Counted from the first letter of the stretch, positions 15,961-43,517 are shown. The stretch is 43,649 bases of DNA from Thermoanaerobaculia bacterium (GCA_036383875.1 DASVNL010000032.1:1-43649), one strand, 5' to 3'. Notes: generated by a model from the sequence alone, not told the origin. Numbers and translations: made by a program.

Positions 15961-15962
15961 AC

Positions 15963-16008: not shown

Positions 16009-16063
16009 AGGCCACGATCCCAAGCGAACAATTCGACCCCATCGAGTGCCCGGAGGAGATGTC

Positions 16064-19639: not shown

Positions 19640-19641
19640 TC

Positions 19642-26479: not shown

Positions 26480-26932
26480 ATGTTCGACGACACGCACGAT
26501 CTCATCCAGCAAATGATGGCCGCGTACGCCGACGACGCAGTCAGCTTTGCGCGTCAGGTCTTTTCGATCGAACTGAATTCATCGCCGGACAGCATCCAAC
26601 AAGTCGAATTCATCCTCGACAAACTCTCCCGCTCCGTCCGCCGAACCTGGCTCAAACGCCTCCTCCGCCTCGGCATGTCCGAAGAGCAAACCGACACCGT
26701 CGCGAAAATGTTCGGCGGCTACATCGGCGAAATCATCCGCAAAGACAAAGGCGGCATCTGGCAAATCATCGCCAGCCCCACCGGCGAAGGCGACGTCGTC
26801 GCCCTCGTCAACGGCGAAGACAAAATCTTCCCACCCGCCAAGGCCTACAAGCGGCTCGTAAACGGCGACGAGGACAACGTCTGGTTCTATTACCAGGTGT
26901 TGATGTCCGGCGAGGTTTACGGAAGCCGGTAA
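26480..26932 (+). CDS. hypothetical protein
   Basis: 150-aa ORF with normal composition. It starts 1 nt after the previous stop. Its 3' end overlaps the convergent caspase gene by 16 nt. No family recognised. Confidence 0.55.
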   Translation: MFDDTHDLIQQMMAAYADDAVSFARQVFSIELNSSPDSIQQVEFILDKLSRSVRRTWLKRLLRLGMSEEQTDTVAKMFGGYIGEIIRKDKGGIWQIIASPTGEGDVVALVNGEDKIFPPAKAYKRLVNGDEDNVWFYYQVLMSGEVYGSR

Positions 26933-28566: not shown

Positions 28567-28580
28567 GCCATCGTCGAAAG

Positions 28581-28596
28581 GGTGGCGCGCGCCACC
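28581..28596. promoter_or_regulatory. perfect 16-bp palindrome GGTGGCGCGCGCCACC (A/T flanked) in the 77-bp divergent caspase / vWA intergenic region
   Basis: Read directly: gaaag GGTGGCGC GCGCCACC ttttt, at 28577-28601 with flanks. No upstream plus-strand gene is present for it to terminate. Confidence 0.5.
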
Positions 28597-28643
28597 TTTT
28601 TCCCTCCCTCGTGTCCTTTCATGGACAGCAATCAGGGAGACAT

Positions 28644-29774: not shown

Positions 29775-29796
29775 TCACTCGAGAGAGAGGCCTCCA

Positions 29797-32553
29797 ATGA
29801 AAAACAACGTCGTGTTTCGCCCCACTGTCGTCATCGGACTCGGTGGTACCGGCTATGGCGCATTGCTGAAGTTGAAGAAGCGTTTCGTCGACGCGTACGG
29901 CTCGGTGCCGCCGATCATTCGCTTCCTCTCGATCGACACGACGGAGAACGCCGAGGGGACGACGCGGACGGAGGAGGCCCCGCAGGAGGGTGGGCTCGAT
30001 CACAACGAGATGTACGTCCTGCAGGTCGGCAATCCCGGAAATCTCGTGGGAAATGGAACGAATCCGCATCTCGATGAATGGTGGCCGCCCGAAATTCCGA
30101 CGCAGGCCATCATCGCGGGCGCCGGCCAGGTGCGTGCGCGCGGACGCCTGGCGCTCTTCGCGAAGGCGCAAGAGGTGCGCGCGCGGATCCAGCGCGCGAT
30201 CGACGACGTGCGAAACATCCGCAATCAGAAGCAGATGTATTCGGATCAATTTCAGATCTCGAATCGTGCGGGCGTTGAAGTGCACATCGTCGGCAGTCTC
30301 GCGGGTGGCACTGGCAGTGGGACATTTCTCGACGTCGCGTTCATCGCGCGCGACATCATCGGCAGCGACGAGAACTCGAATTTCACCGGCGTGTTGTTGT
30401 TGCCCGGGATTTTCACGCGCTACGCGGGAGTCGCGCTCGTCAAGCCGAACGCGTACGGCGCGCTGAAAGAGATTGAATATCTCTCGACGATGAAAGGCAG
30501 TCTCACGATCGACTATGGCATGCGCCGCGTCGAGGTGACGCGGCCGCCGTTCGACGTCGTCTATCTGATCGACAGCATCAACGAGCAAGGCCGGGTCGTC
30601 ATGGAACAGAACGATCTCCTCGGCCTGATCGCAGACGGAATGTACGTCCAGATCGGATCGCAGATCGGCACCGACAGCGCGAACGCCGTCGACAACATCA
30701 AGACCCAGATTGCGACCGCGGGTCGCGTCAAAGGACGTTCGCCGCAGTACTGCAGTTTCGGCGTCGCGTCGCTGACGATGCCGACGTTCGACGCGCTGAT
30801 GTGGGAGGACGCGAAACGCCTCGTCAATGATGATCTCCTCAATGGCGCTGTCGCGGATTCCGAAGTCGAAGAAGAGGTGCAGCGCTTCATCGACCAGAAC
30901 CGCCTGCGCGAAGACGAGGCCGATCAGGTCGTCGAATTTCTCAGTCAGCGCGAGGGCGGCGGTCAGTTGCGCATCCCGATGCCGCTCACGCAACTCACCT
31001 TCGACAACAAGGCCCTCGGCGCAATCAAGAATCTGCACACCACGCATCGCTCGCGCGCCGAGCGTCAAATTGCGCAGGCCATCGGCGCGAATTTCGAGAA
31101 ATTACGCGATGACTGCGTGGCAGCGATCACGACGCTATGGGAAGCGAAGGTGAATCGCATCAATGGATTCACGCGCGCGGAGCGCTTCTTCGAGAAGCTC
31201 CAGGCGAAGCTGGAGTGGTACCAAAACATGATGGACGGCGAAGCGAAGGAGGAGCGCACGAAGCTGAAGGCGCTGAGCTTCAAGCCGGCCGAGGATCAGA
31301 TTACGGAGGCGGCGGGCGCGTTCTTTAGTCGCGAGGCGCGCGTGAAGACGGCGTGCGAAGTGTACGGCGGACTGGTCGATCGCGAGACCGAACTGACGAT
31401 TCGTGTCGCGCGACTCGAGAAGGCCGCCGAGCTTTATTCGACGCTGCATGCGCACACGCAATCGATCCTCAATTCCTGCTACCGCATCCGCGAAAACCTC
31501 AATGCATCGCGCAAGCAATTCGAGCAGCAGTATCTCGACGCGACGAACCCGCGCGGGTCGTCGCGGTTGTTCGAACAGACCGTCGCCTTCGATCCCGGCG
31601 CACAACGTCCGAAGGTTCTCGGCGATGACTTCGTGAAGTGGTACGCCGATCATCACGCGAACGGCTCGCTCTCGCAGTGGGCCGGACTGCGCGCGGCCGA
31701 AGTCCACGCGGACATTCGCCAGTTCGTCGAGAAATGTTATGAGCCGCTCACGTCACTCACGATGGACGACATCCTGAGCCGTCTCTCGCCGGATGCGGTG
31801 TCGCAGGAATTGAAGCGCCTGGATAATCTCGCCGTTCCTCTCTGGCGTTACGACCTCGGCAGAATTCCGGTCGTCAATCAAACCATCATCAATGAGTTCT
31901 ATCACTACGGCGTTTCAGACGCGGAGTCGACGGTGCTCAAGGCGGCGCGTTATGCGACGGGCGTTCCCAAGGGCAACGCGCAACCGGGCATGGTCTCGAC
32001 GCGCGACGCGAACCGCATCCTCCTGTTCAAGGTCAAGACCGGCATTCCGCTGTTCGCGCTTGCCGACATTGAAGACATGGAGCGCGCGTATACCGATCCG
32101 AACAAGATCATCTCGTGTCACCTTCACCGCGACTGGAAGGAACTACAGAACCTCATTCCGCGCAGTGGCGACGGCGAGGCATTGCGGTGGTTCGCGCTCG
32201 CGCAGGCGCCGGAGCCGTTCGCGATCATCAAGCGCGAGGGCGCGTGGTATTCGATGAAGTCGAAGGGCGGCAAGCGCCTCGACAACAACATGGTTCGACT
32301 CGCGCAGGGCCGCGTGCCGGCCTACAACGCGTTCGAGAAAAATCGGGAACTCGTTCAGGAAGCGGAGGAATCGATCGATGCCGTAGTCACGCGCGAAGGC
32401 GCGGTGCGCGTCATTCAGATCCTCAAGGACTACACGGACACGCTCTCGAAGCAGATGAGCGGGACGGCCGTCGATCCGGTGGTGAAGGATCAAGTCGAGA
32501 ACGAGATTCTGGCCATTGAGGATTACGTGCGGCGGATGGAGACGCTGAGCTGA
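29797..32553 (+). CDS. tubulin/FtsZ-superfamily GTPase (Tubulin_2-like) with a ~600-aa helical C-terminal extension
   Basis: 918 aa. T1-like VVIGLGGTGYG lies at 29836-29859. The tubulin-signature-like motif GSLAGGTGSGTFLDVA has AGGTGSG at 30301-30321. No signal peptide or TM. No division/cell-wall gene context. Confidence 0.75.
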   Translation: MKNNVVFRPTVVIGLGGTGYGALLKLKKRFVDAYGSVPPIIRFLSIDTTENAEGTTRTEEAPQEGGLDHNEMYVLQVGNPGNLVGNGTNPHLDEWWPPEIPTQAIIAGAGQVRARGRLALFAKAQEVRARIQRAIDDVRNIRNQKQMYSDQFQISNRAGVEVHIVGSLAGGTGSGTFLDVAFIARDIIGSDENSNFTGVLLLPGIFTRYAGVALVKPNAYGALKEIEYLSTMKGSLTIDYGMRRVEVTRPPFDVVYLIDSINEQGRVVMEQNDLLGLIADGMYVQIGSQIGTDSANAVDNIKTQIATAGRVKGRSPQYCSFGVASLTMPTFDALMWEDAKRLVNDDLLNGAVADSEVEEEVQRFIDQNRLREDEADQVVEFLSQREGGGQLRIPMPLTQLTFDNKALGAIKNLHTTHRSRAERQIAQAIGANFEKLRDDCVAAITTLWEAKVNRINGFTRAERFFEKLQAKLEWYQNMMDGEAKEERTKLKALSFKPAEDQITEAAGAFFSREARVKTACEVYGGLVDRETELTIRVARLEKAAELYSTLHAHTQSILNSCYRIRENLNASRKQFEQQYLDATNPRGSSRLFEQTVAFDPGAQRPKVLGDDFVKWYADHHANGSLSQWAGLRAAEVHADIRQFVEKCYEPLTSLTMDDILSRLSPDAVSQELKRLDNLAVPLWRYDLGRIPVVNQTIINEFYHYGVSDAESTVLKAARYATGVPKGNAQPGMVSTRDANRILLFKVKTGIPLFALADIEDMERAYTDPNKIISCHLHRDWKELQNLIPRSGDGEALRWFALAQAPEPFAIIKREGAWYSMKSKGGKRLDNNMVRLAQGRVPAYNAFEKNRELVQEAEESIDAVVTREGAVRVIQILKDYTDTLSKQMSGTAVDPVVKDQVENEILAIEDYVRRMETLS

Positions 32554-35351
32554 TGCTCAAGCCCGTTAGCATTCTCGCCCTCGACGATGCCTCGGCGCCG
32601 CTCGCAATGGCGGTGCAACAACGCATCGCGTCGCAGCTCGAGCTCGACGATCTCGTGCAATGCCGCGCCATTGGAGCGACGACGCTCGAGGATGCGATTC
32701 AGTCAATTCACGCGCAGCGCCAGCGTCCCGACAGTCCGCTGCGCGTGCGCGACGATCTCAGTCCGCGCGAATTGGTGATGGTCGTGCTGGCCGCGTCCGG
32801 GCCCGCACGATTGACGCTCATCGAGACGGTGCAGCGCATTCGCCGTCATTACGAGTCGCGCCACCTGGTGTCGTTCTTCACGATTGAGATTCTCTGCTTG
32901 ATGCCCGAGGTGATTGGGGCGAAGGAGAAGGGCGACTATGCGAATGCATATGCGTTGCTGAAGGCGCTGAGCGCCGATGGTGCGAAAGCGTTCGACGAAG
33001 TGTGGCTGCTCGACGCGACCAACGGCGCGCGCGTGCGGTTCGGCGCGATCGACACGGCGCTCGATGCCTACGCGGATGCCGTTGCGGGCTCGCTGTTACA
33101 CGAGCCGGAGATGAGCGGCGCGCTGCCTGGCCTCCATCCGCGCGGGATGCATCCGACGTTCAGTTCGTTCGGATACGCGGAGCTCGTGTTTCCGCGCGAC
33201 ATCGCGCTGCGGCGGCTCGAGCCGCGATTCGCGGTGCAATTGCTGCGCGAGACGTTGCTCGCCGGCAAGGAGCCATCGCACGCGCAACTTGCGGCAAAGC
33301 AGTTCGTCGCGAGCGATGAGTTCACGACGCCGCTCGCGCGCATCGGCGTCGACGCGGGGCAGTCGCTCTTTCAGCGATTCCAGGCGCGTGCGCACGTCAC
33401 GGAGCAGACGCGCAGTGCGGACGAATTGATCGCGGCGGTGCGCGCCGAGTTGAAATCGTTTCGCGACACGACGCATCTCAAGAATCTCGAGACGCTCGCG
33501 AAGCAGGGCGAGCAGACATCGCGCGACTTCGCGACGCGACTCGCGCGCGTCGTCGACGAGACGCTCGATCGCGACGGATACGACTCGGCGATCGCGCTGC
33601 TCGACGCGTTGCTCGATCCGCTGCCGGATTTGCGTCCGGACGCGGAGCTCGCGCCGCGCAATCTCGTGACGGAAATCGGCGCGGCGACGGCGGCTCTCGA
33701 CAAGCAGTTGCAGTTCACGCCCAACACCGCGACGAGCGACGCCGCGCGCAAGCGCATCCGTGAGCTCGAGACGTTGATGCAGGATCAGAAGCTCGTCGCG
33801 GAGTCGCTGTCGCCGGTGTCCGCGGCGGAGCAACTCGAGGAAATGCAACGCGAGAAATCCGCACTGTTGCAACGCGTGCCTGAGGTGCTGTTCGCGGAGG
33901 AGCGGGAGAACAACGTCGCGCGCAACGCGGCGCGCGAGGCGGAGACGGCGCGACTGATGGCGGAGACCGAGGGGCGCGAGCAGACGTTGCGCGAATTGTT
34001 TGCGCAGTTGCCGCGCGCGGAGCAGGCGGTGCGTGAGGCGCTGGAGTTGCGACGCGACTGGCTGCGCAAGCAGGTCCTCACCGCGATCGCGGGCGTCGCC
34101 GCGATGTATGGGCTGCCATTCGTTTTCGGTCTGCTGCGCCCGAACCTCGAGCGCATCCACTGGGCCACCGGCCTCGGCCTGCTGACCTTCGCGATCGTCT
34201 GCACGTATCGCTACTTCAATCAAATCCAACCGCTCGTCAGCGGTGCGCGCGCGGCACTGGCGCGACTGCGTGAACAGATCGCGGCGACCGATCAGTCGAA
34301 GAACGCGGCGCACAACGACGAGCTGCGATTCGAATACGACATGGCGCATCGCCGCACGACGATCCGTGTGCTGCGCGAAACGCGCGACGTCGCGAAGACG
34401 ACGCTAGACGCCGTGCGCGCGCGACGCGTCGAGCTCGAGGAACTGGCAGCGGCGCTGACGCCGGCGTCGATCGTCTCGAGCGGACTGACGATCGCGATCG
34501 TGGACGACGCGGAAGTCGACGCGTGGTACGAGCGCACGATCGAGGATCGCAAGCCATTCGTGCGCGAGTTTCCGATCACGCGCGCGCAGTCGCGACAACT
34601 GGCGCTCGATGATCTGCGCGAACGCATCGTCGCGTACACCGCGACGGCGTTCGACGCGTTCCGCAAGTTCACGCTCGCCGATGCAGCGGCGAATGTCGCG
34701 AGCGAGCCGAAACTCACGCAGCGCATGAAGCGATTCACCGATACGAGCGCGCCGCTGATCGAAGTGCGCGACGACGATCTGCACGCGCAGAACGCGATGC
34801 AGCGCGACGCGACGTTGTGGGCAGACAGCAGCGATCGGACGTGGCTCGAACAGCTGCAGCGTCGCTTTCCGAGCGCGCATTTCAAGGCGTCGTCGGATGC
34901 ATTGCGCGTCCACGCGATCACGCGCGTCCTGCACTATCCGGCCTACGTCCTCGGGCAAATCGAGTATTACCGCGCGCAATACGAAGCTGCATCGCAGCGC
35001 GAGTCCGCCGACGTCGCGGATCTGCTGCCGCCCGAGCTCATTCTCGGGACGCCAGTGCGGAACGCGTACGAGCAGGTGCTGCTCGCACGCGCGGTCGGCG
35101 TGATCTCGCAACACGCCGACGGGCAACTCTTCGCCTCCGACTCCGCCCTCGGCAACTCGCACTTCGCCGCGGCTCAACGCATCGCCGATGCAGCGCCGTT
35201 GCGCGATGCGTTGGAGAACGCGCTCGCGCCGCGATTGGAAATCGCGGGCGATGTCACGCGGGATTTGCGCACGCTCGGCGAGTTGCCGCTCACGCCGCTC
35301 GAACGCAATCTCGTCGACGCGTTGCTCAAGAGGTACGCGGCGCTGGCGTGA
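32553..35351 (+). CDS. degenerate tubulin-like paralogue with coiled-coil regions and a central two-helix membrane hairpin
   Basis: 932 aa. TGATG 1-nt overlap with the upstream gene. The N-terminal ~250 aa are collinear with the upstream protein, but the GTP motifs are replaced (ILALDDASAP for IGLGGTGYG; VVLAASGPARL for GSLAGGTGSGT). The TM hairpin lies at ~34074-34215 (LTAIAGVAAMYGLPFVFGLL ... WATGLGLLTFAIVCTYRYF). Long Glu/Arg/Leu/Ala-rich helical stretches are present. Confidence 0.7.
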   Translation: MLKPVSILALDDASAPLAMAVQQRIASQLELDDLVQCRAIGATTLEDAIQSIHAQRQRPDSPLRVRDDLSPRELVMVVLAASGPARLTLIETVQRIRRHYESRHLVSFFTIEILCLMPEVIGAKEKGDYANAYALLKALSADGAKAFDEVWLLDATNGARVRFGAIDTALDAYADAVAGSLLHEPEMSGALPGLHPRGMHPTFSSFGYAELVFPRDIALRRLEPRFAVQLLRETLLAGKEPSHAQLAAKQFVASDEFTTPLARIGVDAGQSLFQRFQARAHVTEQTRSADELIAAVRAELKSFRDTTHLKNLETLAKQGEQTSRDFATRLARVVDETLDRDGYDSAIALLDALLDPLPDLRPDAELAPRNLVTEIGAATAALDKQLQFTPNTATSDAARKRIRELETLMQDQKLVAESLSPVSAAEQLEEMQREKSALLQRVPEVLFAEERENNVARNAAREAETARLMAETEGREQTLRELFAQLPRAEQAVREALELRRDWLRKQVLTAIAGVAAMYGLPFVFGLLRPNLERIHWATGLGLLTFAIVCTYRYFNQIQPLVSGARAALARLREQIAATDQSKNAAHNDELRFEYDMAHRRTTIRVLRETRDVAKTTLDAVRARRVELEELAAALTPASIVSSGLTIAIVDDAEVDAWYERTIEDRKPFVREFPITRAQSRQLALDDLRERIVAYTATAFDAFRKFTLADAAANVASEPKLTQRMKRFTDTSAPLIEVRDDDLHAQNAMQRDATLWADSSDRTWLEQLQRRFPSAHFKASSDALRVHAITRVLHYPAYVLGQIEYYRAQYEAASQRESADVADLLPPELILGTPVRNAYEQVLLARAVGVISQHADGQLFASDSALGNSHFAAAQRIADAAPLRDALENALAPRLEIAGDVTRDLRTLGELPLTPLERNLVDALLKRYAALA

Positions 35352-35355
35352 CGCG

Positions 35356-36126
35356 TCAGTTGCGCTGCAATTGTTCGATCGCGCGTCGCAACGCCGCGAT
35401 CTCTTCGCGCAGCTCGTTGTTGCTGTTCGTTTCTGCTTTCTGATCGGGCGACAGGAACCAGGTCGCGAGTCCCGCCGAGACGACGCCGAAGAGTCCGACG
35501 CCCGCAGTCATCAACAACGCGGCGACCATGCGTCCGGCGGTGGTCATTGGGAACTTGTCGCCGTACCCGACGGTCGTGATCGTGGTGATCGCCCACCAAA
35601 TCGCATCCTCGGCCGTCATGATGTTCCCGGTATTCGGATCTTCGAAATGCAAAACCGCAGTCGCGCCTGCGAATACGAGAACCACGGCGAGCAAGGTCGC
35701 GGCGAGCAATGTCGATTGTTTACGGCGACTGAGAATCGCAGTCGAGAGCACCCGCGCGGCACGAAGTCCGCGCAGCAATCGCGCGATGCGTGCGATGCGC
35801 GCAATGCGACCCCACCGCGCGACGTCGAGCATCGGAATTGACGAGAGCAGGTCGAGCCAGCCCCACGTGAGGAAATACTTCATCCGATTCGGCGCGCGCC
35901 ACAACGTGATCAGAAAATCGATCCCGAACGCGATGCAGATCGCCGTGTCCGCATACATCAACACGCCTTCAATCTGCGAGTCGTGATCGACCGCGTTCTG
36001 CGCGACCACGCCCGCAAGCGCGAGCACGCAAAGCGCGAGCATGAAGAGTTGATAAACCGGCATGGCGCTGCGCGCCGGTTGTGCTGGCGCCGAGGCGGCG
36101 GGAGTGGCAAGTGCGTCAGTGGACAT
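35356..36126 (-). CDS. voltage-sensor-containing K+ channel (6TM Kv/KvAP-like)
   Basis: 256 aa. The S4-like segment is RWGRIARIARIARLLRGLRAARV. The selectivity filter is TTVGYGD. A short C-terminal coiled coil is present. SD AAGGAG follows 12 nt after the caspase stop. Confidence 0.85.
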   Translation of the reverse strand: MSTDALATPAASAPAQPARSAMPVYQLFMLALCVLALAGVVAQNAVDHDSQIEGVLMYADTAICIAFGIDFLITLWRAPNRMKYFLTWGWLDLLSSIPMLDVARWGRIARIARIARLLRGLRAARVLSTAILSRRKQSTLLAATLLAVVLVFAGATAVLHFEDPNTGNIMTAEDAIWWAITTITTVGYGDKFPMTTAGRMVAALLMTAGVGLFGVVSAGLATWFLSPDQKAETNSNNELREEIAALRRAIEQLQRN

Positions 36127-36138
36127 GGCGGCTCCTTG

Positions 36139-37941
36139 TCAACGCCGTAGTTTACGCGGCGGCACGGATTCAAACGCCGCTCTTTCGATCGACCACGCGC
36201 TCGTCGTCAGCGTGCGGCCGGCGCGAATGCCATCCCAGTCGAGCACCGACGGATTCGGCAGCGGCTCTTCGGTCGACAAGAGAAAGAACAAATCGGCGCC
36301 ATACGGCGGCTTGACCTCGAAGACGGAGTTGTCGCCGAGGGTGATCGTGGATGCGATTTCACCAAGAGGAAAGCGATTCTCGACCGAGCCGTTGCTGCTT
36401 TGTGGGAACGCGAGAAAGCTTTTGCCGTGGCTGTCGATCACGAACGCGTAGTAGTAGCGTTTCGGCGCCCTGCGATTCGTGCCTTGCAATACGACGCGAT
36501 AGCGCTCGCCACCGATGAGCGTGTTGCCGGTGACGAGCGACCGATCGGCTTCGCGTTGCAGCGCGAGCCGGTACGGCGCGGCGGGCCCGGGCGGAGACTC
36601 GAGATTTCGCCAGCCGTGAATCTTGCGCAGCGTCAACGCGGACTCGCGCAGCGACGCACGGTTCGCAATCCACGCGCTTCGTTCATTTCGCGCGCCGGTG
36701 CGAATCCACGCGTGCTCTTGACCTTTGCTCGCGAGGATGTAGTCCGCGTCTGCCGCAGTTGCGACGATCTGGAAGCCGTCGCTGGAATCGATGATGCCGG
36801 TCAGCGGCGATTGCGACCACACGCGCAATGGTCGCGACGGAGGTGCGGCCCACGAGCTCACTTCGAGCATTGCGCCGGCGGTGACGCGGCCACGCTCGAT
36901 GCGCGCGACGCTGCGGTGAATGCCGAGGAGACGGGTGACGACGAGGCGGGACGCGTTGTCGCGCGTCTTGAGGATGCTGCCGATCGCGAGGCCGTTCGCC
37001 CAGCCGCCCTGCACGACGACGGTGCCGTTCGCATCGACGCGTTCGATCGCGACAACCGATTGTCGATCGCGAAGGTGGAGTCGCGTGTCGAGGAAGGGTC
37101 GATTGCGAGCGGCGCTCGTTCCCGCAAGCACGGGCTGCTGATCGGGATGCTCGGCGCGCATCCGCGCATGGGCGCGAAGGAACGTCTGTTGCGCGGACTC
37201 GTGCGGTGTCGCGTCGCGCAGAGCGTGCAGGAATGCCCACGTGAAGTCGCCGTGCAGTTCATCGTCGTCGCCCAACGATTCCCACGCGGTGCCATTGTCC
37301 TGTGCAGCCGCGATCACGAGCGCGCCGCGCGTTTCGGGTCGCGGGCCGTAGTCTGTGCGATCGCGCACGTCGGTGGTCGCGGGCTGAATGCTGCGCGTGC
37401 GAGGTGATCCGCGGAAGGACGAGCCGCTGTTGCAATGATCGAGGAGCAGCGTGAGGTGCGTCCCGCGATCGAGGATCGCGTTGAAGCGCGTGCGCAGTTC
37501 CTTGTCGCGAATGTCCGGCGCGCCGCGACGCGAGTCGGCGGGAACGATTGATTCGTCGAGCCGATCGAGTTCGTCGGACAGCGAATTGGGAATTTGCGAG
37601 CCGTGCCCGGCGAAGTAGAAGAACGCGACATCGCCTTTGCGTGACGCGTTCACGAGATCGTCGATGGCTCGCAGGATTGCGACGCGTGTCGCGCGTTGAT
37701 TGAGGAGCGTGACGACGTCGCCCGTCGCGAATCCGTATCGCGACGTCAATAGCTCGCGGAGCAATTGTGCGTCACGTGCCGCGCCACGGAGATCAGGCCA
37801 GCCGCGATGCTCGACGTTGCGTACTTTTGGGATGGTCGACGCGGTGTAATCGTCGATGCCGATGATCACCGCGCGTTTGCGAACTGTTTGCGCGTCCGCG
37901 GTCATCGCGATCAGGCAGGTGAATGCGAGAACGAATTTCAT
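36139..37941 (-). CDS. exported caspase-family (peptidase C14) protein with C-terminal DUF4384-like domain
   Basis: 600 aa from ATG 37941 (MKFVLAFTCLIAMTADAQ signal; ATGA overlap with the upstream gene stop). The dyad contexts are FFYFAGHGSQ and LLLDHCNSGS. The C-terminus YYYAFVIDSHGKSFLAFPQ...FEVKPPYGADLFFLLSTEEPL matches my memory of DUF4384. Confidence 0.75.
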   Translation of the reverse strand: MKFVLAFTCLIAMTADAQTVRKRAVIIGIDDYTASTIPKVRNVEHRGWPDLRGAARDAQLLRELLTSRYGFATGDVVTLLNQRATRVAILRAIDDLVNASRKGDVAFFYFAGHGSQIPNSLSDELDRLDESIVPADSRRGAPDIRDKELRTRFNAILDRGTHLTLLLDHCNSGSSFRGSPRTRSIQPATTDVRDRTDYGPRPETRGALVIAAAQDNGTAWESLGDDDELHGDFTWAFLHALRDATPHESAQQTFLRAHARMRAEHPDQQPVLAGTSAARNRPFLDTRLHLRDRQSVVAIERVDANGTVVVQGGWANGLAIGSILKTRDNASRLVVTRLLGIHRSVARIERGRVTAGAMLEVSSWAAPPSRPLRVWSQSPLTGIIDSSDGFQIVATAADADYILASKGQEHAWIRTGARNERSAWIANRASLRESALTLRKIHGWRNLESPPGPAAPYRLALQREADRSLVTGNTLIGGERYRVVLQGTNRRAPKRYYYAFVIDSHGKSFLAFPQSSNGSVENRFPLGEIASTITLGDNSVFEVKPPYGADLFFLLSTEEPLPNPSVLDWDGIRAGRTLTTSAWSIERAAFESVPPRKLRR

Positions 37942-38324
37942 GGCCACGATCCGCACGGTTCCAGCGACCGCGCTTCCTTTTCAGTCGTGGCGCCGTAAGT
38001 CCACAAACGTTCATTGACGTCTCGGTAGGTGACGGCGCGAAATCTACGGTCGGCGGCGAATTTCTGAATGCCGCCTTCGTAGACCTTGTATTTCGGCGAG
38101 CCGTATTGAAACGCCTCGACGATGTTGTCAGTCAGCGCTTGGCCGGTCTGCACGAGCAGCACCTGACAATCGTTGCCGGCGGCGTAACTACGGATGCTCC
38201 ACTTGGGGAATTGTCTGTAGCGTTCTGTGAGCTCATCCGACGCTTTGATGTGAGCCTCGGCGACAGGATCGGCATCGCAGGCCAGAAAGAGAGTGAGCAG
38301 AGTCATAGCGAGCAGGCGGTGCAT
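37938..38324 (-). CDS. small lipoprotein, unknown function
   Basis: 128 aa with the lipobox LTLFLAC. SD AGGAGG upstream of ATG 38324. Translationally coupled (ATGA) to the caspase gene. Confidence 0.6.
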   Translation of the reverse strand: MHRLLAMTLLTLFLACDADPVAEAHIKASDELTERYRQFPKWSIRSYAAGNDCQVLLVQTGQALTDNIVEAFQYGSPKYKVYEGGIQKFAADRRFRAVTYRDVNERLWTYGATTEKEARSLEPCGSWP

Positions 38325-38343
38325 GACGCCTCCTGATGAGAGA

Positions 38344-38373
38344 ACGGCTCGCCATCAAGCGATGGCGAGCCGT
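38344..38373 (-). other. perfect 13-bp stem / 4-nt loop intercistronic hairpin
   Basis: ACGGCTCGCCATC aagc GATGGCGAGCCGT lies between the stop at 38391 and the SD/ATG of the lipoprotein gene. No U-tract follows on the minus strand (tctctc). Confidence 0.6.
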
Positions 38374-38390
38374 CGAATGGAAGTGTGGGA

Positions 38391-39452
38391 TTACGGCCAG
38401 GTCGTCGGGGGACAGAGGGAGCGGTCGTACAGCGTCCGTCCGACATCGAAGCGCAGCGCGGTGAGCAGCGCCGACGCCGTCGTGCCCGAGGGGTGGATGC
38501 TCGACCACGTCACCTCGGGGACCTCGATTTCGCCGACCGCGCCTGCGCGCGGCACGAGGCGCTCCTCGCGCGCCGGCGGCTCTTCGAGCAACTCGTAATA
38601 CATCTCGAAGTGCTTGCCGGCCTGCGGGGCGTTGTTGTTCGACGACGCCGGCGGAACGAACGGCGGGAGATTCACGACCGCCACTTCGACCTTGCCCGAC
38701 ACGTCGGGAGAGAGCGTCATTGTGCGGCCGCCGCCGGCGTATTTCGATTCAACGAATTTCACGCTGTCGCCGGTCACAGTGATGTCGGCGCCGACCCACG
38801 TGGCCACGGCCTGAACGTAGGCGGAATTACTGCCGGTACCGTCGAGGCGATTGAAATGCACGGGCGTGACGTCACTGCCGATGCGCGCAATGCCGAACGT
38901 GTACAGATCGCCGGCGGACAGCTTGAAGCGCGCGGCGATGAGCTCCGGCGGGATCGTATCGAACACGTCGGCGTCGAGCGTGCAGCCGCCACCGCAGACG
39001 GTATTGAGGCTGGCGATCCAGGAGATGTCTTCACGCTCGCTGGTCGTCGTCGGGATGACTTTGGGATTGCCGTTGGTCGTGCCGCGCACGTTGTCGCGGA
39101 GATTGAAGGCTGGGAGATTGGCCGCGCCGGAGCTGGCTTTCTCGACAGTGATGTCGGAGCCGGCGATCAGCCATGCGCTGCCGTCGCCCAATGCGGTTTC
39201 GAGTGAGTCCACCGCGGTGGACGGCGTATCGCGGAAGGTGGTGTTGGCGATGGTGCTGTTGTTGGTGACGCAGTCGCCGGTGCAGTCGCCGGCACGCGCA
39301 TAAAGGATGGGCGTGTGGGCCTGCAGGGCGGCGCCGTCGGACGTGTGATAGTGATCGGCGTTGAGAAGCAGCACGGTCACTTCCGTGCCGTTCTCATTGG
39401 GGACGAAGGCCATCAGGCCGGTGAACAGAATTCTCAGGATGAAGGTGCTCAA
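38391..39452 (-). CDS. hypothetical protein, unknown family
   Basis: 353 aa from TTG 39452 (SD GGAGGA 8 nt upstream). Normal composition. It begins MSTFILRILFTGLMAFVPNENGTEVTVLLLNADHYH and contains Cys pairs GDCTGDC and CGGGC. It overlaps the CHAT 3' end by 59 nt. The track start (39500) is also possible. Confidence 0.55.
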   Translation of the reverse strand: MSTFILRILFTGLMAFVPNENGTEVTVLLLNADHYHTSDGAALQAHTPILYARAGDCTGDCVTNNSTIANTTFRDTPSTAVDSLETALGDGSAWLIAGSDITVEKASSGAANLPAFNLRDNVRGTTNGNPKVIPTTTSEREDISWIASLNTVCGGGCTLDADVFDTIPPELIAARFKLSAGDLYTFGIARIGSDVTPVHFNRLDGTGSNSAYVQAVATWVGADITVTGDSVKFVESKYAGGGRTMTLSPDVSGKVEVAVVNLPPFVPPASSNNNAPQAGKHFEMYYELLEEPPAREERLVPRAGAVGEIEVPEVTWSSIHPSGTTASALLTALRFDVGRTLYDRSLCPPTTWP

Positions 39453-42168
39453 TTTGTTTTTCCTCCAGTGCTGGTGTGGTGCCGTACGGCGAAGTCGCAA
39501 ATCCGACTGCCTGGAACGGGGCCCACACCATTGCTGACTTTCTCGGGAGCATTTCGAGCTGCGCCTTTCTCAGCGCCGCTGCCATATCGGCTCCTTCGCG
39601 ATAGTGACGATGAAATGACACGAACAGATCGTGTGCTGTGGCGTCATTCACCTTCCAAAGCGTGCCGACGATTCCCGGAACATTGGCCGCAACCAGCGGC
39701 CGCACTAGAGACGAGAGTCCTTCCGGCCCAATGGACTGGCCATCCGTGGTACTGCACGCGGCCAGAACGAAGAGACGAGTTTTTTCAAGGGTGTCGAAGT
39801 TGGCGAGCAGGCGCTCCGCCGTGAGCTTCCCCCGGTCTGCGCCCGAAGGAGCGAGCACCAGCATCGACTGCGAGGGCGCCGCGCTGTCGGATTTCGCGTG
39901 ACCGGCGAAATGAACAATGGAGCTTTGCCGCGCGTGCGACAGAAATTCGGGCACCGTAGCCTCGGTATCGACGAGCGATGTGACCGCGGAACCATAATAT
40001 TGGGCGAGACTCGCCGGCTCCATCCGGGCGTTCGGCAGCCGTCCCAGGCCGACGAAGTCCTCGAGTGAAAATGCCGGATCGCCGACGACCAGAACCTTGC
40101 CGTGGGGATCGCGGGGTAATTCCCGATCGCGCGCTACTGCATAGAAAAATAAAGACGCACTGCCGGCCACCGACACGGGACCCTTTTCGATCAGGTATCG
40201 ATTGGCGTCGTCCTTTAATGCCTCGAATGGCAGCGCGTGCATCGGCCCATCCGGGACGATGATGAAGCGAGGCATCGGGTGTTTGACCGACGTCAGTGCC
40301 GGCGCAAGAAGTCCGTCGTAGGGAGCGCGTAGTCCATCGTCGAAGCTCTGCTCATATCCATCCGCGATGGCGGCGTGAAGCGTCGCGACCCAAGCTTCGA
40401 TCTGTCCCCGCGTCGCGCGAAGTCTGAAGAGCTTGACGTCGTCACGCGAGATGAGCCACACGAAGGTGTGATTCTCCAGGACCAGATATTCGAGGATGTA
40501 CGTACCGGCAGGGAGGGACGTATGCGCGTCTTTCAGCTCGCGCAAAGACTCGATTTTGTGAAACCCGGCCGGCGGCGTCCGCGAGTGCAACGCGAGATAC
40601 ATTGGCTCGAACGCGCGCGCCTGTTCCGCCGAAACGAGAGCCGCCTCCGTCTCTTGCCGCGCGGCCTGCTTTTCGATCTGCGCGTGGTAATGCGACTGAA
40701 AGCGGGAGAAGTATGGCGTGGAGAATTCCTCGAACTTCCCGCGCTCACGCCCGCGCAGCAGCGCCTCCTGCTCTTTCCTCAGGACCTCCAACGCCGTGAC
40801 CACGTCCTTCTGTTCGCTCGCAGAGTCGCCGGCAAAACGATGTGCGGCTGAGCGTTTGAGGTAGAGGAGAAAGAGCCGCGTCGGATTTTCACCAGTAGCC
40901 GTGTCGATGGCTTTCGTGAAAATCTTTACTGCCTCGGCCGGCTTGCTCTTGGCGAGCAACTGCGCCTCGACTTCGTCGATCTCCGATCGCACCAGGTTGT
41001 ACGTTTCAGTACCCAGTTGAGCGGAGTCGAGCACGCGTTGGGCGAGGTCAATGTCGAGCGCAGCGTCGGCTTCGCGTCCCAGTTCGAGCTCGAGTGCGGC
41101 GCGTGCGCGCAGCGCGACGGCGTATTCCTGCTTAGGTTTGCTCGCACGCCCGGCTGGAGCCAGAGCGACGGCGCGCTTGATGTCCTCGACGGCGACTTCC
41201 TGATAGAGGAGCCCCAAGCGGGGATGGCCTTGCAATCGGAGAATCGTGGCGATTGAGCCGTAGGCGATGTGGCGCTCGCGAAGATCAGTGATTCGGGGGA
41301 AGAGGTCCACGATCCGTAACGCATCTTTCCACGCCAGGTCATCGCGACCGAGATACTGATGAGTCAGAATTCTTCGGCCAATGATGGATTGATACTGAAC
41401 GTTTGAGTCGCGCTCCAGTTCGTCAAAGTACGGTAAGGCTTGCAAGTACTCGCCCCGGAAGTTGTGAGACTCGGCGAGAAGTAGGGCGGCTCTGTACCGA
41501 AGCGACGGGTAGGTCGCCTTCATTGCGGCGTCGAATGCCGGCTTCAATCGTGCGATTGCCCCCGAATAATCTTGCATCGAATACAGCGCAAACCCGGTGT
41601 TGTAGTCGGACAACGCTTTCAACGGGCCACTGGAGGCAACAGGAGGATGCCCGATGACAAAGCCCGCAGCCAGGAGGTCACTCGGAAAGCGATCGCCATT
41701 TTCGGCGAATACGGTTGCAAGTAAAGGATTCGGATCCCCCAATTCGAAATAGGACGCGACGGGCGAAGGGAAGGCCTTGACGAATTGCTGCATCGTCGCG
41801 CGATCGCCTCTTTGAACGGCAGCTATAAACCGGTCGCGATCTGCGACGAGCGGCGGCGGGATGCTCAGCAATTCATCGCGACGCTTGCGGGCTTCGCGGC
41901 TCCATTCGCCCTCATTCATCTTTACGACGTTGTCGAACGTCGCGATGGCCAATCTGGTCAGGCCGAGCTCTTCCTGAATGACGGCCAATTTGTACTGCTT
42001 AGAAGGGGAACTGGGATCAGCGGCTACCTCGGCGGTGGCGAGTTCCCAGGCTCGCGGTAAATCTGCGGGCGGGGTTCGCCCCTTTTCGAATCGGGCCGTG
42101 TCTTCCTTTGTGCAGGCCGGCAAAAGGCTGCAGAGAGATAGAAGAATGCAAATGATTCTTTGTTTCAC
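39394..42168 (-). CDS. TPR-repeat + CHAT-domain (caspase-fold protease) lipoprotein
   Basis: 924 aa from GTG 42168 (VKQRIICILLSLCSLLPAC lipobox). The middle is a long TPR-like helical repeat region. The C-terminal CHAT contexts are IVHFAGHAKSD and LFVLAACSTTDG, ending VWAPFQAVG. The track ORF start (42444) would overlap the divergent sigma gene. Confidence 0.75.
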   Translation of the reverse strand: MKQRIICILLSLCSLLPACTKEDTARFEKGRTPPADLPRAWELATAEVAADPSSPSKQYKLAVIQEELGLTRLAIATFDNVVKMNEGEWSREARKRRDELLSIPPPLVADRDRFIAAVQRGDRATMQQFVKAFPSPVASYFELGDPNPLLATVFAENGDRFPSDLLAAGFVIGHPPVASSGPLKALSDYNTGFALYSMQDYSGAIARLKPAFDAAMKATYPSLRYRAALLLAESHNFRGEYLQALPYFDELERDSNVQYQSIIGRRILTHQYLGRDDLAWKDALRIVDLFPRITDLRERHIAYGSIATILRLQGHPRLGLLYQEVAVEDIKRAVALAPAGRASKPKQEYAVALRARAALELELGREADAALDIDLAQRVLDSAQLGTETYNLVRSEIDEVEAQLLAKSKPAEAVKIFTKAIDTATGENPTRLFLLYLKRSAAHRFAGDSASEQKDVVTALEVLRKEQEALLRGRERGKFEEFSTPYFSRFQSHYHAQIEKQAARQETEAALVSAEQARAFEPMYLALHSRTPPAGFHKIESLRELKDAHTSLPAGTYILEYLVLENHTFVWLISRDDVKLFRLRATRGQIEAWVATLHAAIADGYEQSFDDGLRAPYDGLLAPALTSVKHPMPRFIIVPDGPMHALPFEALKDDANRYLIEKGPVSVAGSASLFFYAVARDRELPRDPHGKVLVVGDPAFSLEDFVGLGRLPNARMEPASLAQYYGSAVTSLVDTEATVPEFLSHARQSSIVHFAGHAKSDSAAPSQSMLVLAPSGADRGKLTAERLLANFDTLEKTRLFVLAACSTTDGQSIGPEGLSSLVRPLVAANVPGIVGTLWKVNDATAHDLFVSFHRHYREGADMAAALRKAQLEMLPRKSAMVWAPFQAVGFATSPYGTTPALEEKQIEHLHPENSVHRPDGLRPQ

Positions 42169-42210
42169 GCATTCACTAAGATACGCGCTTCGCGCGATCG
42201 GAGACGAATC

Positions 42211-42774
42211 ATGACCAATCAGAACGGCGGCGGTGGCGGCGACGATCTGTTCCGGTCTCTGTACAAACGCTATTACCAGCGCATGCGTCGCTTTTTTCGA
42301 AGCGTCTTCAAAGTTTCGGAAGAAGATGCAGAGGAATTGACACAGGACGCATTCGTCCGGTTTTTCAAAGCCATCCGTGAATATCGCGGCGACGCTGAGT
42401 GGGCGTTTCTCGAGGCCATCGCGCGCAACGTCGGATACAACCACATCCGCTCACTGTCTACACAGCGACGCGGAAGTGTCCGGCCGGTTTCGTTGGACGA
42501 TCCCGCGGCTGGGTTCCAGGCGCCGCGCGCGTTGGTCACCGACCCGATCGACAGCATGATCGAAGGCGAGCGGCGGCAACGGTTGCGCGAGGCGATCACG
42601 AAATTGCCGAAGGGCCAGCGCGAGGCGTTGCAGTGGTGGCTGGATGGGCTTTCATACGAAGAGATCGCACGATTGCTGCGAAGCTCGGTCGACGCGGTGA
42701 AGTCGCGCATCCGCGATGGCAAACGGTTGTTGCGCGAGCGGCTTGGAGTCGCTGACCCGGAGGATGAGTCATGA
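42211..42774 (+). CDS. ECF-type RNA polymerase sigma-70 factor
   Basis: 187 aa from ATG 42211 (SD GGAGA). The region 2-like sequence is EDAEELTQDAFVRFFKAIREYRGD. The region 4 HTH is LPKGQREALQWWLDGLSYEEIARLLRSSVDAVKSRIRDGKRLLRERL. Confidence 0.85.
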   Translation: MTNQNGGGGGDDLFRSLYKRYYQRMRRFFRSVFKVSEEDAEELTQDAFVRFFKAIREYRGDAEWAFLEAIARNVGYNHIRSLSTQRRGSVRPVSLDDPAAGFQAPRALVTDPIDSMIEGERRQRLREAITKLPKGQREALQWWLDGLSYEEIARLLRSSVDAVKSRIRDGKRLLRERLGVADPEDES

Positions 42775-43517
42775 CCAATCAGTCGGAGTGGCAGGAAGCG
42801 AATCGCGAATTGATCGCCGAGGCGCGCCGGAAGTTCGGCGAGCCGCCGACGGCGGAAGAGATGTTTGCATACAGCCGGGGCGAGATGTCCGAGGAGGAGG
42901 CGGATCGCATTCGCGAGATGCTTCTGGCGTATCCCGAGCTGGCGCGCGCCTACAGCGCGGAGTTTCCCGAAGCGCCAGTACCGGGCGACGCGGATTACGT
43001 TCCCGAGGCCGAGGTCGATGCGGCGTGGAACGCGCTGCAGTCGCGACTTGGCGCAAACGGCAAGATCGTGCGGTTCCGGAACTTTCCGACCGCGGTCGCG
43101 GCGCTCCTCGCGGTCGTGTTCTTCGGACTGTTCGTCTACGCGGAAGGGCGGGCGCGCCACTATCGCGGCCTCGCGATCACCGGGCCGGTCGTGGTGCGCG
43201 AGTTTCAGGAGTTCGATGCGGACACGCCGCGCGGAGGCGCAATTCCGCAAACGCTCATTGGGGTCGGGGACCTTTACGCGATGAGCCTGCGACCGCTCAC
43301 CGGCGTCCGTTACGAGAGCTATCGCATCGAGATGGTCCGCGATGGTGAAGAGCCGATCCGCATCAACGATGCGAAGCTCGACGACAAGGACTCTTTCAAC
43401 ATCGTCATCCCCCGAGGACTGGTGCGTCCGGGCGATTACCGCCTGCGCATCTACGGCATGGATGGGCGCGACGATCACGACGCCGGGACCATCCTCGTCC
43501 GGGTCCCGACCCCCTGA
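42771..43517 (+). CDS. putative anti-sigma factor (single-pass membrane protein)
   Basis: 248 aa. ATGA overlap with the sigma gene. It has a cytoplasmic helical N-domain (no HxxxCxxC), the TM AVAALLAVVFFGLFVYA, and a ~120-aa extracytoplasmic C-domain. The role is inferred from position. Confidence 0.6.
   Translation: MTNQSEWQEANRELIAEARRKFGEPPTAEEMFAYSRGEMSEEEADRIREMLLAYPELARAYSAEFPEAPVPGDADYVPEAEVDAAWNALQSRLGANGKIVRFRNFPTAVAALLAVVFFGLFVYAEGRARHYRGLAITGPVVVREFQEFDADTPRGGAIPQTLIGVGDLYAMSLRPLTGVRYESYRIEMVRDGEEPIRINDAKLDDKDSFNIVIPRGLVRPGDYRLRIYGMDGRDDHDAGTILVRVPTP

Follow-up and report, generated by a model that had tools for sequence, protein, structure and literature searches.

Which of the genes at this locus belong together, and what might their products do? 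The window, a stretch of 43,649 nucleotides from a Thermoanaerobaculia bacterium (DASVNL010000032.1), carries on its minus strand five co-oriented genes, for a TPR-CHAT protein, a protein of 353 aa, a small lipoprotein, a caspase and a potassium channel. An earlier note, made from the sequence alone, took them for one operon whose products are made together and probably act together. The features that we consider here are listed below.

35356..36126, minus strand: Kv-type six-transmembrane K+ channel (Ion_trans and Ion_trans_2 matches)
36139..37941, minus strand: Sec-exported C14 caspase-family protease, 600 aa, with a DUF4384-like C-terminal region (Peptidase_C14, signal peptide)
37938..38324, minus strand: Lpp128, small lipoprotein of 128 aa with conserved DC...PC cysteines (lipobox LFLAC)
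38344..38373, minus strand: GC-rich hairpin in the U353-Lpp128 gap, 13-bp stem and GCUU loop (conserved with covariation)
38391..39452, minus strand: U353, 353 aa, unannotated beta-rich family, translationally coupled to the CHAT gene (homologues, structure model, linkage)
39394..42168, minus strand: TPR-CHAT cysteine protease, predicted lipoprotein, 924 aa (CHAT domain, lipobox, TPR by profile)
42169..42210, no strand: divergent spacer, 42 nt long, separating the start codon of sigma from that of CHAT; its core, CGCGAAnnGCGTATCTTAGTG, is conserved
42211..42774, plus strand: ECF (group IV) sigma factor, RpoE/AlgU-like, divergent from the CHAT gene (Sigma70 models, structures)
42771..43517, plus strand: putative anti-sigma factor, 248 aa (position, single hydrophobic segment)

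Gene order and its conservation

All junctions were read directly from the sequence, and the tight same-strand spacing described before was borne out: the CHAT and U353 genes overlap by 59 nt (39394-39452), the lipoprotein and caspase genes share an ATGA (37938-37941), and the caspase and channel genes are separated by 12 nt containing AAGGAG (36127-36138). The gap at 38325-38390 does hold a perfect 13-bp hairpin (13 of 13 bases complementary).

The conserved unit is composed of an ECF sigma/anti-sigma pair, divergent from the genes for the TPR-CHAT lipoprotein, U353, Lpp128 and the exported C14 caspase. This module is conserved at about 100 loci, 47 from genomes and more than 50 from metagenomes (uncultured soil Acidobacteria). 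All of the 47 genome loci come from Thermoanaerobaculia or Acidobacteriota MAGs and have identical gene order; where the host class is named, it is Thermoanaerobaculia (Acidobacteriota). Several MAGs contain two paralogous modules each. Apart from the channel, the genes of the five-gene set keep their order in every related genome locus with enough flanking sequence, and because these four recur with the order unchanged, the arrangement is more than chance. Occurrence in other genomes was a check that the earlier note had named for itself, and it turned up the four-gene order and not the channel.

CHAT lies directly upstream of U353 at 90 of 92 loci, with an overlap of either 59 nt or 4 nt throughout, and a caspase gene follows downstream at about 62 of 67. 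The sigma/anti-sigma pair, overlooked before, is the most consistent partner of the set, standing next to and divergent from CHAT-U353 at 59 of 64 loci. The caspase gene of two distant relatives, L102 and L103, is relocated behind the anti-sigma gene, in the sigma operon, while CHAT-U353 stays divergent; since the linkage survives this rearrangement, a shared function is strongly evidenced. In another locus (L095) a subtilase (S8) takes the place of the caspase. Identity to the window proteins across loci is 50–71% for U353, 30–45% for CHAT and 24–46% for the anti-sigma factor; the latter two change faster, which fits sensor roles. From the above, we are highly confident that CHAT, U353, Lpp128, the caspase and the sigma/anti-sigma pair belong to one module. 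The earlier claim is supported in so far as four of the genes are a conserved, co-oriented and tightly coupled set, and is not supported for the K+ channel.

Proteins of the module

The CHAT gene starts with GTG at 42168, and its N-terminus, MKQRIICILLSLCSLLPAC, contains a lipobox, which is found at every locus examined but one; from this lipoprotein signal the protein is predicted to be extracytoplasmic (periplasmic). The CHAT domain (Pfam PF12770) is matched at E = 7.8e-51 (173.7 bits against a cut-off of 24), and the dyad His757 (HFAGHA) and Cys805 (LAACST) is invariant in 33 of 33 orthologues. The TPR label is more subtle: the single sequence stays just under the Pfam cut-off (TPR_6, 25.2 bits against 26.3), but the family profile matches TPR structures at positions 237-528 (E = 6e-7 to 1e-4). 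Compared with solved structures, the same profile gave weak CHAT-fold matches to Csx29 and separase only (E = 1e-4 to 1e-3) and no match to DdvA.

The caspase matches Peptidase_C14 at E = 1.1e-24 (87.8 bits against a cut-off of 21.4), has metacaspases as its nearest solved relatives, and keeps the dyad His113 and Cys170 in all 38 orthologues compared; the orthologues have signal peptides with an AxA-Q cleavage motif. In the name caspase-DUF4384, given before, the C14 part is sound, but DUF4384 stays below threshold: the cut-off is 27 bits, the window protein scores 14.3 (E = 0.044), and 6 of 10 orthologues reach 17–25 bits at the same position. Export signals on both CHAT and the caspase would place them in one compartment, and with both His/Cys dyads intact and invariant, the proteolytic cascade between them suggested earlier is plausible.

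Lpp128 has a lipobox conserved among its orthologues and is present at all 46 genome loci whose sequence extends downstream past U353. It is absent from more distant clades and is therefore a clade-specific accessory; outside this sub-clade, the caspase gene lies directly after U353 or in the sigma operon. The earlier idea of Lpp128 as an inhibitor or chaperone of the caspase is weakened by this restriction to one sub-clade.

U353 starts with TTG at 39452, 7 nt past GGAGGA. Close homologues number more than 543, and a wider search gave 403 cluster representatives; identity within the main clade is 50–75%, and searches of Pfam, NCBIfam and PADLOC gave no match. The structure model is confident (pLDDT 92), and no fold match was found for it in PDB or BFVD. 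The N-terminus is modelled as core beta-strands, and the sequence contains no signal peptide and no transmembrane segment, so U353 appears cytoplasmic and would occupy another compartment than CHAT, which our main model leaves unexplained. His46, Cys57, Cys61, His281 and Cys347 are invariant. The family keeps company with proteases: CHAT is encoded upstream and C14 or S8 downstream, and in one case an S1 protease is fused.

The sigma factor matches Sigma70_r2, Sigma70_r4_2 and Sigma70_ECF (TIGR02937 at E = 3.8e-23), and its closest solved structures are AlgU, RpoE and SigE. Its stop codon overlaps the start of the putative anti-sigma gene in an ATGA (42771-42774). The anti-sigma factor has a single hydrophobic segment, a TM helix at residues 105-123, with a cytoplasmic domain on its N-terminal side and a periplasmic one of about 125 aa. 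Among family models none reaches its cut-off (best, NCBIfam PRK13920 at E = 0.0096); there is no zf-HC2 match, and the conserved N-terminal motif is without His/Cys ligands. The distant relatives L051 and L095 encode zf-HC2 anti-sigma factors. Between the sigma and CHAT genes, a spacer length of about 39–42 nt and the core sequence are common to most Thermoanaerobaculia loci. An ECF-type promoter was sought in the 42-nt spacer and elsewhere and none was identified, as -35 and -10 elements were not assignable.

The hairpin and the potassium channel

The arms of the hairpin lie at 38344-38356 and 38361-38373 around a 4-nt loop, and the folding energy is -32.3 kcal/mol (z = -5.4; none of 200 shuffles folds as well). 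It was treated as incidental in the earlier note. However, all 47 genome loci keep it in the same place, directly after the stop codon (the median stem is 13 bp), and it resembles a terminator or attenuator. Compensatory changes are seen in 4 of 10 pairs and 98.8% of cells are paired, values reached by 0 of 500 shuffles; the hairpin is not a dispersed repeat. At most loci only 8–48 nt lie between it and the next start codon, too little for a promoter. The U-tract after the stem is weak in the window, where 3 of the first 8 nt are T, and across loci at least 4 T are found in 22 of 47 and at least 5 T in 11 of 47; a terminator scan did not list the hairpin. An intrinsic terminator, an attenuator or a 3'-end stabiliser is probable, and we lean, with some reserve, towards a role as attenuator or terminator.

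The channel is a well-defined protein (Ion_trans E = 1.5e-19; selectivity filter TVGYGD; S4 segment RIARIARIARLLR), with KcsA and Kv channels as its closest structures. Because of the 12-nt gap with its AAGGAG, it is probably co-transcribed with the caspase gene in the window. This gap and the common orientation favour the original reading, in which the products of one five-gene operon, the Kv channel included, act together; one form of it would be a CHAT-to-caspase cascade working on or alongside the channel, with the lipoprotein as inhibitor of the caspase. At 12 of 57 loci, moreover, the same strand has a channel gene at some point downstream. However, it is within 400 nt of the caspase gene at only 3 of 57, one of which (L016) holds a channel-gene fragment only. 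In three loci (L004, L005 and L036) the caspase gene abuts a convergent P932 gene with no channel between, and in the closest relative (L104, U353 75% identical) about 950 nt and three opposite-strand ORFs separate caspase and channel, while the junction of the channel with P932 is kept. Moreover, the conserved terminator-like hairpin splits the set and argues against a single simple transcript, a kind of evidence that the earlier note itself had set against its operon. The five-gene operon is thus largely refuted by the comparative data, and we hold this explanation to be very improbable. The channel was rejected as a member since its linkage is not conserved, and its exclusion from the module is well founded in our judgement. 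The channel is a chance neighbour, which a local deletion has brought up against the caspase gene in the window genome.

Both in the window and at many loci, the module stands in synteny with a VWA-Tubulin_2-P932 operon (P932 is Tubulin_2-like) and with C14b, a second caspase paralogue. C14b is often inserted, inverted, between Lpp128 and the caspase.

Known systems, proposed mechanism and other explanations

In Myxococcus xanthus, DdvS/DdvA pairs an ECF sigma factor with a transmembrane anti-sigma factor that has a TPR-CHAT domain in the periplasm, and this CHAT domain is the proposed site-1 protease that starts regulated intramembrane proteolysis (PMC11506125). Similarly, the module encodes together a sigma factor of the ECF type, a putative anti-sigma factor with one membrane pass, and a predicted extracytoplasmic TPR-CHAT protein with a His/Cys dyad. 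Unlike in DdvA, the TPR-CHAT protein is a separate lipoprotein encoded on the opposite strand, and the anti-sigma factor has no CHAT domain; at 248 aa it is small, it brings a periplasmic domain (about 125 aa) of its own, and a zinc-binding (CHCC) motif is not recognisable in it. The module also adds U353, the small lipoprotein and the C14 caspase, its host is an acidobacterium, and no CBASS or CRISPR genes are found among the genes examined.

Craspase joins type III-E CRISPR Cas7-11 with Csx29 (TPR-CHAT), Csx30 and CASP-sigma, and Csx29 cleaves the anti-sigma-like Csx30 (PMC10028731). The genetic link of a TPR-CHAT protease with an ECF-type sigma factor is common to both, but craspase is cytoplasmic and RNA-activated via Cas7-11, whereas the module has no CRISPR component, its CHAT protein carries a lipoprotein signal and its anti-sigma factor spans the membrane; no kinship of U353 with Csx30 or Csx31 is known. 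In RpoE/RseA with DegS and RseP, regulated intramembrane proteolysis is used (PMC10028731). The module resembles it in the RpoE-like sigma factor, in the gene for a putative single-pass anti-sigma factor that follows at once, and in having a candidate for the site-1 enzyme among periplasmic proteases; it differs in that this candidate is a caspase-fold cysteine protease, a lipoprotein encoded beside the sigma gene, and not a PDZ serine protease, and in having no RseB-like gene. With orthocaspases, metacaspase-like Peptidase_C14-DUF4384 proteins and EACC-type systems (PMC8195603), the module shares the C14 fold, the His/Cys dyad and an ECF sigma neighbour, and its DUF4384-like C-terminal region, though below threshold, points the same way. 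However, the window caspase is Sec-exported, it scores 59.5 bits against a cut-off of 140 for the NCBIfam EACC1-associated caspase, and no EACC or TRADD-N partner is present among the genes examined.

By analogy with DdvA/DdvS and Csx29/Csx30, we propose that the module may serve as an envelope signalling and protease circuit. In this process, the TPR region of the periplasmic CHAT lipoprotein would sense a protein signal, CHAT would cut the periplasmic domain of the anti-sigma factor (the site-1 step, as proposed for DdvA), and intramembrane proteolysis would free the sigma factor and raise transcription of the module. The exported caspase would be the output protease; CHAT may mature it and, in this clade, Lpp128 may keep it in check. 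The hairpin might hold the lipoprotein and caspase below the levels of CHAT and U353, and U353 would be an obligate and apparently cytoplasmic partner of CHAT. Taken as a whole, a conserved Thermoanaerobaculia module of this kind is the best explanation, and we give it an even chance of being right. The single step in which CHAT acts on the anti-sigma factor, drawn from the analogy, is possible but rather doubtful. More speculative is a wider proposal, which we put forward only tentatively as an unlikely one: U353 would be a new fold and family and an obligate partner to a free-standing TPR-CHAT lipoprotein of the periplasm, forming with the ECF sigma/anti-sigma pair a "split DdvA" trans-envelope device, in which a caspase-fold protease is the site-1 enzyme for the anti-sigma factor, a cytoplasmic His/Cys-centre protein is coupled to the circuit, and exported caspases are the output.

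Control of neighbouring genes for exported proteins is common among ECF sigma factors, and CHAT and the caspase are both exported. The sigma pair might then sense its cue by another route, with CHAT, the caspase and Lpp128 as exported output (which might, for instance, break down envelope proteins that are foreign or misfolded, or scavenge protein) and no signalling role for CHAT. The downstream protease is also swappable, mostly C14 but S8 in L095, which is typical of an output component. However, CHAT is near-obligately paired with the sigma/anti-sigma genes even in the caspase-less relatives L051 and L095 (25–27% identity), which speaks for a place of CHAT in the signalling core. There are moreover two precedents for TPR-CHAT proteins acting on anti-sigma factors, and U353 is explained no better than in the circuit model. 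Such an output-only role seems a minority possibility, which deserves to be kept in mind.

A different role is suggested by the neighbours: the module, the VWA-Tubulin_2-P932 operon and C14b could form an island for conflict, defence or programmed death that counters invaders, with the caspase-fold proteases as killing effectors. The synteny, the frequent inverted C14b, the paired paralogous modules and the PADLOC domain-level matches (caspase at E = 4e-19, CHAT weakly) are consistent with it, and ECF-sigma-linked caspase systems have been proposed as conflict systems (PMC8195603). But the PADLOC matches are generic to the domain, the proteases are exported and not cytoplasmic, the module yielded neither an NTPase sensor nor a known defence gene, and synteny inside one bacterial class may reflect common descent and not a shared function. 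We regard this island as improbable; it concerns biological role and not mechanism, and is compatible with the envelope circuit that we prefer.

The named hosts are all uncultured Thermoanaerobaculia; this lineage is common in soil, and next to nothing has been learnt of its signalling and proteolysis. Caspase-fold CHAT proteases have lately been emerging as switches of ECF sigma factors, as in DdvA and craspase, and for DdvA the trigger signal and the cleavage step are still unproven. Because protease and anti-sigma factor are here two distinct polypeptides, the proposed site-1 cleavage could be tested directly with the two proteins mixed or co-expressed. The module also brings to light the well-conserved U353 family: its structure is predicted with confidence, no relative of it can be recognised, and its ties to proteases are tight.

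Composition and conservation of the gene set

The earlier note described five genes here as one minus-strand operon ending in a Kv-type potassium channel, and direct reading of the window sequence, a complete contig of 43,649 nt, found all the sequence features on which it relied. However, its account did not include a divergent ECF sigma gene and a downstream gene for a 248-aa protein, which were also found. The module is taken here as the ECF sigma/anti-sigma pair together with four divergent genes, coding for CHAT (a TPR-CHAT lipoprotein protease), U353 (a 353-aa protein of unannotated family), Lpp128 (a 128-aa lipoprotein) and an exported C14 caspase, while the channel is treated as a neighbour.

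Genes of the module and the adjoining channel gene
35356-36126, minus strand, K+ channel gene, preceded by a 12-nt gap with AAGGAG
36139-37941, minus strand, caspase gene, ATGA common to the Lpp128 stop
37938-38324, minus strand, gene of the 128-aa lipoprotein Lpp128
38391-39452, minus strand, U353 gene, TTG start 7 nt after GGAGGA, 59-nt overlap with the CHAT gene
39394-42168, minus strand, CHAT gene, GTG start, lipobox in the N-terminus MKQRIICILLSLCSLLPAC
42211-42774, plus strand, ECF sigma gene, RpoE/AlgU-like, divergent from the CHAT gene, with 42 nt between the two start codons
42771-43517, plus strand, gene of the 248-aa putative anti-sigma factor, directly downstream of the sigma gene with an ATGA overlap

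In the genome scan, 47 loci were identified, all from the class Thermoanaerobaculia or the phylum Acidobacteriota, and the layout is identical in every locus whose flank is long enough: the genes for anti-sigma and ECF sigma run leftwards and CHAT-U353-Lpp128-caspase rightwards from one spacer. A metagenome scan, with an alignment of intermediate diversity as query, added 49 loci with identity down to 22%, and further loci came from look-ups of distant cluster representatives. Every host is an uncultured MAG or a metagenome contig, ORFs and alignments served to place the gene starts of related loci, and the basis throughout is comparative genomics and prediction.

Linkage was counted in about 100 loci, with hand correction where clade-specific HMMs under-called distant loci. 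CHAT lies immediately 5' of U353 in 90 of 92 loci, the sigma/anti-sigma pair is divergent from CHAT in 59 of 64 (L051 and L095 have zf-HC2 anti-sigma factors instead), and a large C14 caspase is found downstream in about 62 of 67; in L095 a subtilase, not a caspase, follows U353. For L102 (41% identity) and L103 (27%), the caspase gene belongs to the sigma operon, where it comes after the anti-sigma gene, and CHAT-U353 is still divergent. The caspase has thus moved yet remains linked, so the linkage of ECF sigma, anti-sigma, TPR-CHAT lipoprotein, U353 and exported protease survives changes of gene order and resists rearrangement.

Across the genome loci, identity to the window copy is 50-71% for U353, 30-45% for CHAT and 24-46% for the anti-sigma factor, U353 being the most conserved member. 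Close homologues of U353 number more than 543 (60-75% identity), and all those named come from Acidobacteriota or Thermoanaerobaculia MAGs. Judged from its EF-G, which is 86-92% identical to named Thermoanaerobaculia members, L051, among the most distant loci, is a Thermoanaerobaculia genome. Moreover, several MAGs hold two paralogous whole modules, each with its own sigma/anti-sigma pair: CAVWUH010000002.1 (L016, L047), DASWNW01 (L007, L018), DASPMO01 (L009, L038) and DATELS01 (L006, L022). From the above, the family diversified as paralogues within Thermoanaerobaculia.

Protein features, the U353 family and the internal hairpin

The CHAT protein matches Pfam CHAT (E = 7.8e-51); its TPR region is sub-threshold with the single sequence, while a family profile matches TPR structures (E = 6e-7). 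The caspase matches Peptidase_C14 (E = 1.1e-24), and its DUF4384 match is weak: the window protein scores 14.3 bits where the cut-off is 27, and 6 of 10 orthologues reach 17-25 bits. The His/Cys dyads are invariant in both proteases (33 of 33 CHAT and 38 of 38 caspase orthologues), so both active sites are intact. A lipobox is present on CHAT in all loci examined but one and always on Lpp128, whose orthologues also share conserved cysteines; orthologous caspases carry Sec signal peptides with AxA-Q cleavage motifs. The 248-aa protein contains one transmembrane helix (residues 105-123), and its layout is that of a putative anti-sigma factor. These lipobox, signal-peptide and topology predictions put CHAT, Lpp128, the caspase and the anti-sigma C-terminal domain (residues about 124-248) outside the cytoplasm, which would place the proteases and the anti-sigma sensor domain in one compartment. 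The window caspase has 600 aa and does not contain the central segment of about 100-150 aa found in most orthologues (700-790 aa); those of L005, L010, L011, L037 and L043 are even shorter.

Neither U353 nor Lpp128 had a match in Pfam, NCBIfam or PADLOC. Relatives of U353 were found as 403 cluster representatives (E < 0.001), and ten of them scanned against Pfam gave no domain. An AlphaFold2 model from a shallow alignment was poor (pLDDT 51), and only a diverse 55-sequence alignment gave a usable one (pLDDT 92, pTM 0.92), which is mostly beta. Using Foldseek, this model found nothing in PDB or BFVD at E < 0.01 or TM > 0.12, and the U353 profile had no match among PDB sequences. The most conserved stretch is the N-terminus (consensus M.F.LRIFF.GLIAFVPS.DG), which is modelled as core strands. 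Sequence analysis detected no signal peptide or transmembrane segment, and U353 therefore looks cytoplasmic. Five residues, His46, Cys57, Cys61, His281 and Cys347, do not vary among relatives down to about 35% identity and suggest a metal or catalytic centre. Kinship of U353 with the caspase or its C-terminal domain was also considered and rejected (profile-profile probability 0.2%). P0249, a 669-aa relative, combines a U353-like N-terminal domain with a C-terminal extension; trypsin-like motifs (TAAHV...DAALV...GDSGAVW) were recognized by eye in the extension, with no Pfam match at E <= 0.01. If true, this would again tie the family to proteases.

The perfect 13-bp hairpin that the earlier note had pointed out in the only sizeable gap (arms 38344-38356 and 38361-38373, 4-nt loop) has a folding energy of -32.3 kcal/mol (z = -5.4 vs shuffles). 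All 47 genome loci have a strong GC-rich stem-loop after the stop codon of U353 and before the start of Lpp128, with a median uninterrupted stem of 13 bp; many share the core GGTTCGCC/GGCGAACC, and others have unrelated stems at the same place. Among 26 aligned homologous hairpins, compensatory double changes occur at 4 of 10 pairs, and 98.8% of cells keep their pairing; 0 of 500 shuffles reach the observed covariation, and slid controls fall to 31-51% paired; this alignment was made from pre-extracted hairpins and is biased towards structure. A dispersed REP-like repeat was rejected, since the palindrome occurs once per 20-kb locus and elsewhere in the window at chance level, and an Rfam search gave no match. 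The tail is only moderately T-rich (22 of 47 loci have at least 4 T among the first 8 nt, and the window has 3). In most loci the next start codon comes only 8-48 nt after the stem, which leaves no space for a promoter between them. The simplest reading is that the hairpin acts as an internal terminator, attenuator or 3'-end stabiliser, setting CHAT and U353 above Lpp128 and the caspase. Clades that lack Lpp128 usually have no hairpin either, and the distance from U353 to the caspase is then about 10-90 nt (e.g. L082, L084).

Two enlarged U353-Lpp128 spacers look like inserted repeat elements. The one at L007:11050-11172 contains tandem GGTTCCTCGGG-type repeats and a very large hairpin (-76 kcal/mol), and the one at L017:10492-10729 has a second long hairpin of about 150 nt.

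Upstream elements, the channel and the wider neighbourhood

The divergent sigma-CHAT spacer (42169-42210 in the window; homologues in L004-L047) varies little in length (39-42 nt), which is too short for two separate canonical promoters, and its core CGCGAAnnGCGTATCTTAGTG is conserved. It includes a CGT(A/G)TC element 10-11 nt 5' of the CHAT start codon. No promoter was found by a sigma-70 scan, and looking for GGAAC...CGT-type ECF motifs in the longer spacers of distant loci was unproductive.

In many loci (L018, L020, L030, L035, L046, L047, L053, L055, L060-L077, L091), a caspase paralogue of about 328 aa with FATHGVS...LLDACR motifs, related to C14b, the second caspase in the window, is inserted in inverted orientation after Lpp128 and before the main caspase, which therefore needs its own promoter there; elsewhere the paralogue is found behind the caspase, on the same strand. 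In all cases of separate caspase transcription, a palindrome of the form GACAC-N15-GTGTC, with the motif GACAC(A/G)AT-N8-AAACGTGTC, stands exactly 10 nt 5' of the caspase start codon, for example at L062:9455-9479, L018:11535-11559 and L039:11533-11557. A loose pattern of the palindrome gave 28 matches, where chance alone would give 5.5. An operator is one possible function, the promoter of a nearly leaderless mRNA another, and the position of CGT(A/G)TC before CHAT resembles the geometry of this motif. The only match in the window, at 43522, is not conserved in the homologous L004 sequence and is probably due to chance.

Besides its matches to Ion_trans and Ion_trans_2, the channel shows a TVGYGD filter and an S4 segment with arginine repeats, and its nearest solved relatives are KcsA and Kv channels. 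Its inclusion in the set by the earlier note is not borne out by the related loci: a channel lies within 400 nt of the caspase in only 3 of 57 (L007, L061 and, as a fragment only, L016), and a homologue is found anywhere in the downstream flank in 12 of 57. In L004, L005 and L036 the convergent P932 gene, coding for a 932-aa protein, directly follows the caspase. For the closest relative, L104 (U353 75% identical), about 950 nt and three small opposite-strand ORFs separate caspase and channel, and the channel still abuts the P932 end as in the window. This distribution and the L104 arrangement indicate that the 12-nt junction is a recent local juxtaposition. Co-transcription with the caspase is likely in this window given that junction, but the comparative loci do not support a shared function. 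The 3' end of P932 contains a perfect inverted repeat of 11 bp (35175-35213, spacer 17 nt). On the minus strand it lies some 145 nt beyond the stop codon of the channel gene, and it may be the terminator of the minus-strand transcript.

Genes of the wider neighbourhood
26917-28566, minus strand, C14b, second caspase, divergent from the VWA operon
28611-29774, plus strand, VWA gene, in the operon converging on the module
29797-32553, plus strand, Tubulin_2 gene, same operon
32553-35351, plus strand, P932 gene (932-aa product), same operon

This block (26917-35351) is syntenic with the module in L004, L005, L031, L036, L104 and L105, and P932 has a weak Tubulin_2 match in a relative; block and module may form a larger caspase, VWA and tubulin-like island. 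A polysaccharide-utilisation cluster occupies 10308-22178, with a 1439-aa multi-domain GH43, pectinesterase, GDSL and GH88 protein, a 1289-aa TonB-dependent-type outer-membrane barrel, a DUF4861 protein and a GH28 enzyme, and its gene content suggests that the host degrades pectin.

Possible role of the module

One model draws on two precedents. In M. xanthus, the TPR-CHAT domain of the anti-sigma factor DdvA is periplasmic and proposed to self-cleave before the action of RseP (PMC11506125), and the TPR-CHAT protease Csx29 cuts Csx30, lifting inhibition of an ECF-type sigma factor (PMC10028731). By analogy, the CHAT lipoprotein would be a signal-dependent site-1 protease on the anti-sigma factor, the freed sigma factor would raise expression of the module, and the caspase would be the output of the circuit. 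We hold such action of CHAT on the anti-sigma factor to be possible but rather doubtful; weak points of the model are that it does not account for the cytoplasmic-looking U353 and that the promoter searches found no ECF-type promoter. Alternatively, the proteases may be mere regulon output. A role in defence or conflict is suggested as well and is compatible with either mechanism; it is favoured by the VWA-Tubulin_2-P932 operon syntenic with the module, by the extra caspase paralogue and by published caspase-ECF systems (PMC8195603).

A literature search for ECF, CHAT and caspase modules of such composition found only DdvA, craspase and EACC2-type systems, and no description of the module or of the U353 family. 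DdvA is defined by a fusion of TPR-CHAT to the anti-sigma factor and by a zinc anti-sigma domain, whereas the window module has neither. The module is therefore best filed as ECF sigma/anti-sigma signalling linked to a CHAT protease, apart from the DdvA type.
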